A stretch of 64,000 nucleotides of DNA from Longimicrobiales bacterium. Lineage in GTDB: Bacteria > Gemmatimonadota > Gemmatimonadetes > Longimicrobiales > Gaopeijiaceae. The position numbers and the translations under genes were made by a program. A model generated the notes under the pieces. It ran no database searches and was not told the origin of the DNA. It saw only the letters and a program-made list of their open reading frames with translations. Shown here piece after piece: positions 23,087 through 26,113 of this stretch. How positions within the stretch are numbered: the stretch's first letter is position 1; each line of letters opens with the position of its first letter. The stretch is from NCBI GenBank assembly GCA_965202805.1, contig OZ241869.1, positions 2,944,001-3,008,000 on the forward strand. Reading direction: 5' to 3'.

Positions 23087-25465
23087 TCAATTCTCCCCTT
23101 GCCGCGGCCCCTGCAGCTCCAACTGCATCTCGTGCAGGCGGCGATAGATGCCGTCCGGGTTCGCCAGCAGTTCCTCGTGCGTTCCGGCCTCCGCCAGCCT
23201 GCCGTCCTTCATCACGAAGAGACGCGATGCCCGGTGCAGGGTGGACAGGCGGTGCGCGATCGCGAACACCGTGCGCCCGGCCACCAACCGGTCCAGCGCC
23301 TCCTGAATCTTCCGCTCCGTCTCCGTGTCCACCGCGCTGGTGGCCTCGTCCAGGATGAGGATGCGCGGATCGTGCAGGATCGCCCGCGCGATGGACACCC
23401 GCTGTCTCTCGCCGCCGGAGAGGGTCTGTCCCCGTTCTCCCACCACGGTGTCGTAGCCGTGCGGCAGGCGGCAGATGAAGTCGTGCGCGTTCGCGGCCTT
23501 GCCCGCTTCGATCACCCGTTCCAGATCCGCCTCCGGATGTCCGTAGCGGATGTTCTCGACCACCGTGCCGTGGAACAGATACGGGTCCTGGAGCACCATG
23601 CCCATCTGGCGGCGGTAGTGCCCGATCTCGAGCGACCGGAGGTCGACGCCGTCGATGCGGATGCTCCCGCCGGTGGTGTCGTAGAAGCGCGCGATCAGGT
23701 TGACCACCGTCGTCTTCCCGCCCCCGGACGGCCCCACCAACCCGATCATCTCGCCGGGCCTCACGTCGAAGCTCACCCCGCGCAGGACCTGCCGCACGCC
23801 GTCGTACCCGAACGTCACCGAATCGAAGGACACCCGGCCCGCCAGCGGCTCCAGGCGCACCGGACGCGGCTGCTCCACGATCTCCGGCTCGGTGTCGAGC
23901 ACCTCGAAGACCCGGTGCGCCGAACTCGTCGCCCGGTTCATGGTGCGCGCCATCTGGCCGATGATCTCCACCGGCCCGATGAACATGGTCGTGTAGAGCA
24001 GGAACGAGACGAAGGTGCCCGTGGACAGACCGGGCTCCGCGCCCGGCCCCTCCAGCAGCCGCGGCAGCGCGAGCGCCCACACCGCCACCGTGGTCCCGTG
24101 CACCGCGAGCATCAGCCCCGGCCAGAAGGTGGTCCACATGCGGTGGATGCGGTTGTACTCCTCCGTCACGCTCGCATTGCGCCGGTCGAAGCGCCGCGTC
24201 TCCCGCTCCTCCTGGTTGAACGTCTTTACCACGCGCATGCCGGGGATCGTGTCCGAGAGGATGTCGGTCACGCCGGACCACTTGCGCCAGGCGCGCATGA
24301 AGAGGCGCTGGATGCGCTCCCCGTGAAGGAAGATGGCCCAGCAGAACAGCGGAACCGGTGCCGTCATCACCAGCCCGAGCCTCCAGTCCAGGCTCAGCAG
24401 CACGATGCCGAGTCCCGTCAGCATCACCAGCGAAAGCGACACGTCCACCACCCCGAAGGCCAGGAATTCCCACAGCCGGTCGGTGTCCGAACTCACGCGC
24501 GTGATGATGCTCCCGGTTTTCTTGCGCATGTAGAAGGACAGGGACAGCCTCTGCAGGTGCTCGTACAGCTCGGTGCGCAGGTCGCGCGCCACCCACTCGC
24601 CCAGCACCGAGAGCATGCGCAGCCGCACGAGGGCGCCCGCCTGGCGCACGACGTAGACCAGCGCCATCGCTCCCACCGCAACCCAGGCCGCCAGCGTGCC
24701 CCGGGAGAGGTCCAGCGTGCCGTCCCGCACGGGCCGGACGACGTCGTCCAGCAGGTATCCGGCGAGGTAGGGCGGGATCAGGCTCACCAGGGTGATCAGC
24801 CCCGCCGCCGCCAGCCCGATGGTCACCTCCCTGCGGTACGGCCGCAGGTAACCGAGCAACCTCCAGATCACGGCCACGCGAGAGCCCGCGACCAGGGCCT
24901 GGGCCTCGCGGATCGGCGCCGCCACGCTCTCCGCGTAGGTCTCGTCCGGTTCCCCCGGCTCGACGCATCTGCCGCGCAACTGCTCCTCGACTACGAAGCG
25001 CAGGTTCTCCATGGCGCGCCGCTGCCTGTGCGTGTAGCGCACCGTGGCGAGGGGCGGCTCGTCGGGCTCGGCCAGGAAGGACAACACGGTGCCGGACAGC
25101 CCCGGCGATTCGCTGACGGCCCTGACCGAGGAGCGCGGGACACTGCGGATCTCCCACTGGCCAGATGCACGTTGGTTGCGGGAGGCGTGACCGGCGCTCC
25201 TACGGCCCGGGGAGAGCCCGACGTCCGCGCGATCCTGCGTTCCGCCAGTTCCCGCATCGGGCTTTGCGGCCCGCCTGCGCGCCACGGCCAGATGTTCAGC
25301 CCCCAGCGCGACCCAGGTCTCCGCCAGGCGCAGCTTCGCGTCCAGGTCGGCCAGGGCGTAGAGCTGCACCGGCGCGCCGTTCCACGCCGCCTCGATGGCG
25401 GCTCTCGCCCCGGCGGGCATTCTCCCCGGCTGGTTTGTGTACCGGGTGACGATTTCGCGGTCCAT
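23087..25465 (-). CDS. ABCB-type ABC exporter (TMD+NBD) with extra N-terminal domain, DUF1854-associated type
   Basis: GPSGGGKTT, LSGGERQR, LDEATS, AHRLST; six-TM domain; roughly 190-aa N-terminal extension. Confidence 0.9.
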   Translation of the reverse strand: MDREIVTRYTNQPGRMPAGARAAIEAAWNGAPVQLYALADLDAKLRLAETWVALGAEHLAVARRRAAKPDAGTGGTQDRADVGLSPGRRSAGHASRNQRASGQWEIRSVPRSSVRAVSESPGLSGTVLSFLAEPDEPPLATVRYTHRQRRAMENLRFVVEEQLRGRCVEPGEPDETYAESVAAPIREAQALVAGSRVAVIWRLLGYLRPYRREVTIGLAAAGLITLVSLIPPYLAGYLLDDVVRPVRDGTLDLSRGTLAAWVAVGAMALVYVVRQAGALVRLRMLSVLGEWVARDLRTELYEHLQRLSLSFYMRKKTGSIITRVSSDTDRLWEFLAFGVVDVSLSLVMLTGLGIVLLSLDWRLGLVMTAPVPLFCWAIFLHGERIQRLFMRAWRKWSGVTDILSDTIPGMRVVKTFNQEERETRRFDRRNASVTEEYNRIHRMWTTFWPGLMLAVHGTTVAVWALALPRLLEGPGAEPGLSTGTFVSFLLYTTMFIGPVEIIGQMARTMNRATSSAHRVFEVLDTEPEIVEQPRPVRLEPLAGRVSFDSVTFGYDGVRQVLRGVSFDVRPGEMIGLVGPSGGGKTTVVNLIARFYDTTGGSIRIDGVDLRSLEIGHYRRQMGMVLQDPYLFHGTVVENIRYGHPEADLERVIEAGKAANAHDFICRLPHGYDTVVGERGQTLSGGERQRVSIARAILHDPRILILDEATSAVDTETERKIQEALDRLVAGRTVFAIAHRLSTLHRASRLFVMKDGRLAEAGTHEELLANPDGIYRRLHEMQLELQGPRQGEN

Positions 25466-25538
25466 TCTCCCCCCGCGCCTCTTCATCTCCTCCCGCCTCT
25501 TCATCCCCTCGCGCTGTCGCACCTCTCCCTCCCTCCGC

Positions 25539-25590
25539 AAAAAGAAAACGGCCCATCGAAGTCCGCCGTGGAAGCGGACCCGATGGGCCG
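25539..25590 (-). terminator. Intrinsic terminator/attenuator in the 5' leader of the ABC operon
   Basis: On the minus strand, stem CGGCCCATCG/CGATGGGCCG plus inner GTCCGC/GCGGAC, followed by TTTTCTTTTT. Confidence 0.75.
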
Positions 25591-25617
25591 GACTTTCTCG
25601 GAAAGCCTCTGGCTCTG

Positions 25618-25761
25618 TTAGGGTTCAGCCTCCCTGGGCGGCGTGCCCCCGGCGACGCGCGCTACCGCGCGGCCCGCGGGCACGACGATCCGGAATTGCA
25701 CCGGAACGGGACGCACTCGCGCCCTCCGGGCCCGGATCGGATGGAACTGAAGAACTCTCAT
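25618..25761 (-). CDS. Putative leader peptide (47 aa)
   Basis: MRVLQFHPIRARRARVRPVPVQFRIVVPAGRAVARVAGGTPPREAEP*; stop lies 27 nt before the terminator stem; no clear RBS. Confidence 0.45.
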   Translation of the reverse strand: MRVLQFHPIRARRARVRPVPVQFRIVVPAGRAVARVAGGTPPREAEP

Positions 25762-26113
25762 AAGCCGGTCGATGATTTTCCCGAGTTGATGGCGGGCTCG
25801 ATGTCGCGTCGGCCTGCCCTGGATCGATGCGCTTGCCTGCCGGAACCCCCGCCGGAGCCGTAGCGGAGAGCCGGGCAGTCGCCCCTTTACGCCCGACCGA
25901 TGCGTCGGGTTTCAGATTTCCTTGCGGGTTTGCGGCTCTTCGGGTGGGAGGGGGCTCTCGTGTGGCGGCGCGTCACAATCCCCCTTGCATCATTCTGCGA
26001 TCGCCGGGGTTTGAGCGAAGTGGGCTGGACCGGGTGAACGTTGCGTCATTGGGGGTCAAATTGACGTTCAAGGCGAGCACGGCCCGATCCCTCTGCTCGG
26101 CCGGGGAGGCCGC

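Follow-up and report, generated by a model that had tools for sequence, protein, structure and literature searches.

A conserved leader ORF and terminator upstream of an ABC exporter/DUF1854 operon form a predicted translation-responsive attenuator

The locus analysed here lies in a Longimicrobiales bacterium (GCA_965202805.1, contig OZ241869.1, positions 2,944,001-3,008,000); this whole stretch of 64,000 nucleotides is called the window, and its coordinates are used below. On the minus strand, the gene of a fused ATP-binding cassette (ABC) exporter (23087-25465) is followed by a gene encoding a DUF1854 protein (22514-23083), and it is preceded by a candidate attenuator in which a 47-codon open reading frame (ORF), a small hairpin and a large hairpin with a U-tract stand in this order before the ABC gene. 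The leader ORF (uORF; 25618-25761), recognised by ORF reading and by its kept frame in relatives, encodes 47 aa and ends in Glu-Pro-TAA. A promoter, TGAAAC-N17-CGTA, was predicted from the motif upstream of the uORF (25888-25914), with a predicted start near 25880. A small RNA hairpin of a recurring pattern within the uORF (25708-25724) is a candidate pause or loading element. According to nascent folding and pairing, the final four uORF codons (25621-25633) are the predicted 5' strand of an antiterminator, and this strand would pair with the terminator loop and the upper portion of its 5' arm (25570-25581; folding and duplex comparison). The small hairpin at 25607-25591, together with its flanking GCC:GGC pairs (25587-25613), folds as the inner portion of this predicted stem. 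The predicted intrinsic terminator (25539-25590; folding and covariation) consists of a hairpin at 25590-25549 and a U-tract at 25548-25539. The upstream neighbor, a leucine-rich repeat (LRR) gene (26114, plus strand), is divergent from the ABC operon. The ORF, both hairpins with the tail and the divergent gene were all found where a first-pass annotation, made from the sequence alone, had placed them. The leader region folds better than 100 of 100 shuffled sequences (z -2.6). A simple terminator scan of the window did not call the leader hairpin, probably because a G lies between the stem and the U-tract and the stem contains an internal loop.

The ABC/DUF1854 pair was found in 14 of 41 relatives and in 47 of 401 genomes of the phylum, a tally that counts one genome (G189) whose DNA stayed out of the analysis. 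It was also present in 8/251 and 23/151 genomes around a Myxococcota genome and in 7/251 Verrucomicrobiota genomes, and two Gammaproteobacteria samples gave 2/300 (one genome unscored) and 1/151, with few or no further orthologues. With the metagenome loci limited to the best 80 of 454, 147 loci were analysed, four of which were too short (L121, L128, L160, L161), leaving 143 with at least 330 nt of upstream sequence. The same layout, defined by an ATG-started ORF ending 60-200 nt upstream of ABC, occurs in 135 of these 143 loci, from Gemmatimonadota, Myxococcota and one Gammaproteobacterium. Eight loci were set aside by eye: the leader layout is not present in L099 and L100-L105 (six Verrucomicrobiota and one Gammaproteobacterium), and in L064 the hairpin and the Pro-stop are present, but this frame has no ATG. 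Where a locus offered several candidate ORFs (eight loci), the uORF was picked by eye. The same ORF of 47 aa occurs in 10 of 10 same-genus loci examined and in L049. The 135 loci, among which kin are not independent, were reduced to 60 representatives at 85% identity. As a hold-out, 16 Myxococcota loci were added later, 15 of them long enough, and an ATG uORF with a Pro or Thr end stood at the expected place in 12 of the 15; the exceptions were L231 (Pro-stop and hairpin, no ATG in the scanned stretch), L221 (shifted stop) and L235 (Ser end). A covariance model of the leader gave a single strong match per genome, always upstream of ABC. Among cultured bacteria, Gemmatirosa kalamazoonensis has a copy of the leader (NZ_CP007129.1, near 891.6 kb). 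The proposal of an attenuator in the operon's own leader was thus supported by the layout in 135/143 loci and by the terminator covariation described below, and the conserved short ORF and terminator that the first-pass annotation had advised testing for in orthologues are there, mostly with a Pro-stop or Thr-stop and rarely with Glu-Pro.

A wider regulon was also considered and rejected: no second copy was found with the covariance model, and its weak matches were gene-end or tRNA terminators. Searches against Rfam gave no match at gathering score in the window or in 20 orthologous loci and only chance hits for the leader (E>1.9), and a likeness to the cobalamin box was not borne out by this search. 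In two of the Verrucomicrobiota loci without this leader (L100 and L101), tiny ORFs of 8 and 10 codons lie 330-250 nt before ABC and follow a sigma70-like motif and a pyrimidine-rich structured spacer, by eye perhaps another attenuator of the same operon.

The uORF peptide varies widely. Its length ranges from 15 to 67 aa, with 46-48 aa in 25 of the 60 representatives, its sequences are unrelated between families, and neither a conserved internal residue nor an amino-acid run was found among the 60 representative peptides. In close relatives, the ratio of nonsynonymous to synonymous differences (pN/pS) is 0.64 for the uORF vs 0.16 for ABC, and pS itself is 0.095 vs 0.263. Gap lengths are divisible by three in 43/47 cases within the uORF vs 15/78 just downstream, a statistic that is partly built in through the choice of in-frame starts. 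Very short uORFs of 15-21 codons have arisen by in-frame deletion with start and stop retained (L083-L085, L158). These comparisons suggest that the uORF must be translated to a fixed stop and that its body is loosely constrained. A hairpin pattern inside the uORF was found in 28/60 representatives, where 2.6 would be expected. Across its 3' motif, each of the three reading frames is used (18/7/2), and therefore this hairpin is an RNA-level feature.

If the ribosome were stalled at a motif by one particular ligand or amino acid (Arg, Val, Ile or the exporter substrate), as in TnaC, SpeFL and amino-acid attenuators, a pN/pS under 1 and the clustering of lengths at 46-48 aa would be expected, and Ile is indeed raised (5.7% vs 1.6% shuffled, 3.6-fold) while Arg occurs within codons 2-5 in 41/60 representatives. 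However, no common run or motif was found, the peptide can be cut by in-frame deletion to 15, 18 or 21 aa with start and stop retained, and synonymous sites are constrained too, pointing to RNA. Arg is not enriched (12.9% vs 14.4% expected from base composition), Val stands at 8.0% vs 5.7% shuffled and 9.9% in ABC, and Ala at 13.3% vs 12.2% shuffled. Furthermore, cyanophycin synthetase (cphA) was not found in this genome (TIGR02068 best 103 bits, cut-off 850). Such a stall is thus unlikely, and the sensing of Arg or Val supply, once suggested for this leader because the peptide looked rich in both, is not supported; a link to cyanophycin and Arg was likewise rejected.

A small ORF, a stem-loop and an exporter are also the familiar layout of a peptide precursor, in which the ORF would encode a small product for ABC/DUF1854, either an exported peptide or the precursor of a ribosomally synthesized and post-translationally modified peptide, and the hairpin would keep its mRNA in excess over that of the transporter. 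The three parts travel together while the neighbors vary, as this explanation would have it. However, the peptide is unconserved and deletable, no recurring peptidase or tailoring enzyme was found near the pair among the flanking ORFs scanned, and searches of Pfam, NCBIfam, clusters and the Atlas gave no match for the 47-aa peptide. The fixed spacing from stop to hairpin, the rare-codon ends and the variants occluding the Shine-Dalgarno (SD) region described below would all be left unexplained, which makes a precursor very unlikely.

The end of the uORF is highly conserved. Of the 60 representatives, 49 end in Pro, 10 in Thr and 1 in Asp, and Pro or Thr stands last in 133/135 loci, compared with 8.8% (Pro) and 3.0% (Thr) of 2546 predicted genes in the genome. 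The Thr ends stand at four separate places on the ABC tree (L236, too short, left out), and the stop is UAG in 46/60 representatives vs 32% genome-wide. Ends other than Pro and Thr are Asp (L081), Ala (L132) and Ser (L235). R-A-P ends were found in 24/60 representatives; the window uORF ends in A-E-P. From the Glu-Pro-stop first remarked on, the Pro-stop is therefore conserved and the Glu is not (Glu-Pro in 2/60). An involvement of elongation factor P at Pro-Pro pauses is not supported either, with Pro-Pro within the last eight residues in 2/60. The terminal codons are rare ones (CCC/CCT/CCA, GCA, CGA/AGA) and look chosen at the RNA level: the last Pro codon is CCC in 39 and CCG in none of 49, whereas ABC genes use CCG in 629/1079, and Ala codons near the uORF end are GCA in 31/43 vs 148/2803 in ABC genes. 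In 59/60 representatives, the last codon has C at its middle position. A +1 frameshift at CCC-U as the purpose of this end was rejected, for CCA, CCT and ACC ends also occur.

Such an end raises the explanation that peptide release is the regulated step, with the dwell at the Pro/Thr-stop reporting release-factor or recycling activity, fast release giving ON and slow release OFF. Pro and Thr have been linked to slow termination (10.1101/751305), and the 59/60 Pro or Thr ends, the repeated appearance of Thr and the preference for UAG agree with it. However, the invariant feature is the middle C, which pairs with its partner, Asp, Ala and Ser ends exist, and a long uORF would be unnecessary, so that release as the regulated step appears quite unlikely. 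The uORF end would rather be shaped by RNA pairing and perhaps also by slow release, in which the Pro-stop may have a role.

A hairpin with a U-rich tail was found in 58/60 representatives, beginning 18-39 nt past the first base of the stop. In the terminator alignment, 96.7% of cells are paired, 7/11 pairs are compensatory and none of 500 shuffles was as good; the hairpin is of the same style as the gene-end terminators of the phylum. The first-pass annotation had advised folding for an antiterminator without giving one, and one was found between the last four uORF codons and the terminator top. In 69% of 58 loci, the 10-nt stretch that ends at the stop can form at least six consecutive Watson-Crick pairs with the terminator 5' half, compared with 3.6% for windows elsewhere. 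The cognate duplex of uORF end and hairpin has -16.66 kcal/mol vs -14.42 +/- 0.30 kcal/mol for permuted partners (0/20,000 permutations), and the cognate partner is favoured in 51/58 loci after centring. Two-sided compensating changes were seen in L230 and L235, in the clade L075-L086 (A-U to G-C) and in the EADT clade. For the window sequence, the helix pairs 25633-25621 with 25581-25570, and the nascent fold contains 11 expected pairs between the antiterminator strand and the terminator 5' half. When nascent RNA was folded to the hairpin apex, at least four antiterminator pairs formed in 49/58 naked RNAs, and in 56/58 with a ribosome at codons -10 to -15. At fixed columns, 77.6% of the antiterminator is paired, against 28-54% for slid positions. 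The genus alignment also suggested a long-range anti-antiterminator, which was rejected, as the antiterminator still formed in the nascent fold.

An RNA-binding protein or a small ligand of a new riboswitch might instead switch this pairing, or the terminator might damp expression constitutively, with the uORF secondary. The frame-independent hairpin in the uORF, the low synonymous divergence, the very stable terminator of the window and the shifted stop in L221 would fit such an explanation. However, the uORF keeps its start, its frame and the place of its stop across phyla, and neither an Rfam match nor a conserved aptamer-sized fold was found; control of this kind is highly improbable.

The leader ORF and terminator are thus best explained as a conserved ribosome-controlled attenuator, predicted to turn ABC/DUF1854 on when translation slows, to which we assign a probability of about 0.6. 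The parts, their order, with the stop codon some 22-39 nt ahead of the covarying hairpin, their conservation and their complementarity come from sequence comparison, and switching would be expected to proceed as follows. A ribosome keeping pace with RNA polymerase would reach the stop and cover the antiterminator strand, so that the terminator folds and the operon is OFF; slow release at the Pro- or Thr-stop may hold the ribosome there and strengthen OFF. If the ribosome lags anywhere ahead of about codon -8, or is not loaded, the strand would stay free; the last codons could then pair with the upper terminator arm and loop while the 3' arm is still to be transcribed, giving read-through and ON. 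Ribosome behaviour, the input named in the first-pass annotation, remains the most likely one, while its TnaC-like ON signal at the stop does not fit, since a ribosome there would cover the antiterminator strand and favour termination. The peptide varies freely, has no residue run and occurs in very short versions; therefore general ribosome slowing is the likeliest signal. The most likely input would then be ribosome-targeting antibiotics or starvation, and the exporter is a candidate translation-stress or drug-efflux response.

Several results weigh against this ribosome-controlled attenuator. Antiterminator pairing was seen in none of the folds once the assumed ribosome footprint covered the strand, an outcome that follows from the footprint assumed. 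Covariation of the fixed-column antiterminator was not above shuffles (278/500), probably because the register shifts between clades. At equilibrium of the full RNA, the terminator is favoured by a median of 11.9 kcal/mol and by 25.4 kcal/mol in the window, and therefore the switch must be kinetic. With the last 15 nt shuffled, at least six pairs still formed in 31/58 loci (native 52), and base composition therefore explains part of the pairing; among 15-nt windows, the last one is in the top 5% in only 18/58. No antiterminator was predicted for L094, L112 and L236. The SD of the window uORF is weak and distant from its ATG, and transcription-translation coupling is assumed for these phyla.

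The output of the attenuator may differ between lineages. In 28 representatives, a second helix pairs the segment before the hairpin with the SD region of ABC, and this region is predicted to be more open in the antiterminated state in 28/28 of these loci (0.48 vs 0.12). In many relatives, the second helix would also hide the ABC SD in the OFF state. By eye, L098, L232, L234 and L235 have no U-tract and keep only the SD helix, and in a few Myxococcota SD occlusion would be the sole output. A broader proposal is tentative: a cross-phylum family of ribosome-speed sensors, in which the Pro/Thr-stop would be a built-in release timer atop the antiterminator, the output would have moved between termination, dual control and pure SD occlusion, and ABC-PH/DUF1854 would be a so far unrecognised exporter that translation inhibitors induce in uncultured Gram-negative bacteria of soils and the sea. 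RNA run X1 gave only a small share, and in its contigs parts of ABC and DUF1854 of a relative are covered and the leader is not.

Two types of promoter-like motif were found upstream of the uORF. The type present in the window, GAA[AT]C-N16-18-CGTA, resembling promoters of extracytoplasmic function (ECF) sigma factors, occurs in 20/60 representatives vs 0.4% in shuffles, and a sigma70-like motif in 39/60 vs 2.3%. We take TGAAAC-N17-CGTA to resemble an ECF-sigma promoter. TGAAAC-N16/17-CGTA occurs five times in this genome, at 25914-25888 of the window (minus strand) and at 3639391 (+), 746336 (-), 3567345 (+) and 812870 (-) of G000:C1, and never at spacings 14, 15 or 18-20. Two of the copies precede ORFs that by eye resemble a SusC/TonB receptor and a TolC-like protein, and the set is a possible small ECF regulon linked to the envelope.

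The exporter combines a transmembrane and a nucleotide-binding domain (Pfam ABC_membrane, ABC_tran) with an N-terminal PH-like domain. Its start is uncertain, with in-frame GTG at 25522 and ATG at 25504, 25486 and 25465, and may lie up to 19 codons earlier. The PH-like fold was obtained from the protein of a relative (best Z 10.3, root-mean-square deviation 3.1, 107 aligned). The DUF1854 protein matches PF08909 (E 4.9e-36), and no clear fold match was found for its structure model (predicted local distance difference test, pLDDT, 86.7; best Z of the matches 4.2). DUF1854 follows ABC directly in 69/69 loci with at least 3 kb downstream, and the genes around the pair differ between loci (42/163 candidate flanking ORFs scanned). 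The PH-like domain of the window ABC carries a 33-residue insertion compared with L027 (residues ~67-99, ~25270-25170, minus strand), at a site that is length-variable across the genus. In one relative (L021 / L033), the ABC match begins only at residue 366, and the 5' half and the leader are swapped for unrelated sequence. L031, L033, L034 and L037 are titled Gammaproteobacteria; their DUF1854 proteins are 86-88% identical and group with the host genus, so these titles look wrong. In the window, the cassette is flanked by a large cadherin/Ig-repeat surface protein (17159-22225, minus strand) and by the LRR protein, which has a metallopeptidase-like motif (26114-29287, plus strand). Farther away, a 111-aa ORF (32974-33309, plus strand) presumably encodes a HigB/RelE-type toxin of a toxin-antitoxin pair.

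The first-pass annotation had not recognised this element, and it has no Rfam match and no description in the literature searched. There, DUF1854 is described without any leader; subscription papers and motif supplements were outside the search, and an unnamed motif there is possible. No leader-peptide attenuation in a Gemmatimonad was found in the same literature, with no mention of Gemmatimonads among the attenuation matches listed, and a search for cyanophycin with ABC was empty. By sequence comparison, the leader represents a real, widespread and apparently undescribed family of attenuators whose mechanism is of a known kind. With it, the function of the ABC/DUF1854 pair becomes testable for the first time outside the cyanophycin context, as genes behind leaders of this type elsewhere respond to antibiotics or translation stress. 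Control in the style of whiB7 and bmrB, which is known mainly in Gram-positive phyla, would be extended to Gemmatimonadota and Myxococcota. The transcriptional, dual and translational forms and the Pro and Thr ends make up a natural series to gauge the share of slow release in attenuation, the short versions in L083-L085 and L158 are natural tests of the ORF length needed, and the leader is an unannotated RNA family ready for Rfam-style curation.

The leader has the features by which attenuators are recognised in sequence, namely a uORF downstream of a promoter-like motif, an intrinsic terminator before the first gene and a mutually exclusive antiterminator overlapping the uORF, and it can be compared with several known systems. 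TnaC-type arrest involves internal residues that are conserved for binding the ligand, together with control that depends on Rho, and TnaC stalling turns its operon on through Rho. The C-terminal Pro is alike, but here no internal residue is conserved, the control element is an intrinsic hairpin, and a ribosome at the stop is predicted to give OFF, whereas the TnaC stall gives ON. The pheL leader ends in CCC-stop, and its C's also pair in regulatory helices (PMC3082878), a double use that is alike here. Unlike amino-acid attenuators (trp, his, phe, ilv), however, this leader has no regulatory codon run, a much longer ORF and no biosynthetic operon. The arrest of RAPP peptides (ApdA, ApdP, ApcA) requires Pro or Gly in the A site (PMC10951233); the C-terminal Pro and R-A-P are alike, but here a stop follows and the Arg is often replaced. 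As for the genes, the cyanophycin-associated ABC/DUF1854 pair of Betaproteobacteria is a proposed polymer exporter (10.1101/072470). The genes of that pair (NF052233/NF052234) are homologous, but those of the window score below the cut-offs (ABC 633.9 bits, cut-off 880; DUF1854 83.6 bits, cut-off 150) and form a stand-alone cassette with its own leader and no cyanophycin synthetase. In Bacillus subtilis, bmrB is a leader-ORF attenuator before the ABC exporter BmrCD and is induced by ribosome-targeting antibiotics (PMC4191407). The kind of target is shared. The bmrB terminator lies inside the leader ORF, whereas here the hairpin follows the stop and the coding part is the antiterminator strand alone; BmrCD is a heterodimer, and the exporter here is encoded by a single fused gene that includes a PH-like domain and is accompanied by DUF1854. 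In the whiB7/wblC leader of Actinomycetota, full translation of a long variable uORF favours an intrinsic terminator, and translation slowed by antibiotics or starvation favours an antiterminator (10.1101/2023.06.02.543512, PMC11550727). The present leader belongs to other phyla, controls an exporter where whiB7/wblC controls a transcription factor, and differs by having no Ala bias, a conserved Pro/Thr-stop and SD-occluding variants; it is set apart by genes and layout, not by leader sequence comparison. It shares with whiB7/wblC, as described in these sources, the variable uORF, the choice between terminator and antiterminator and the same predicted OFF/ON logic.

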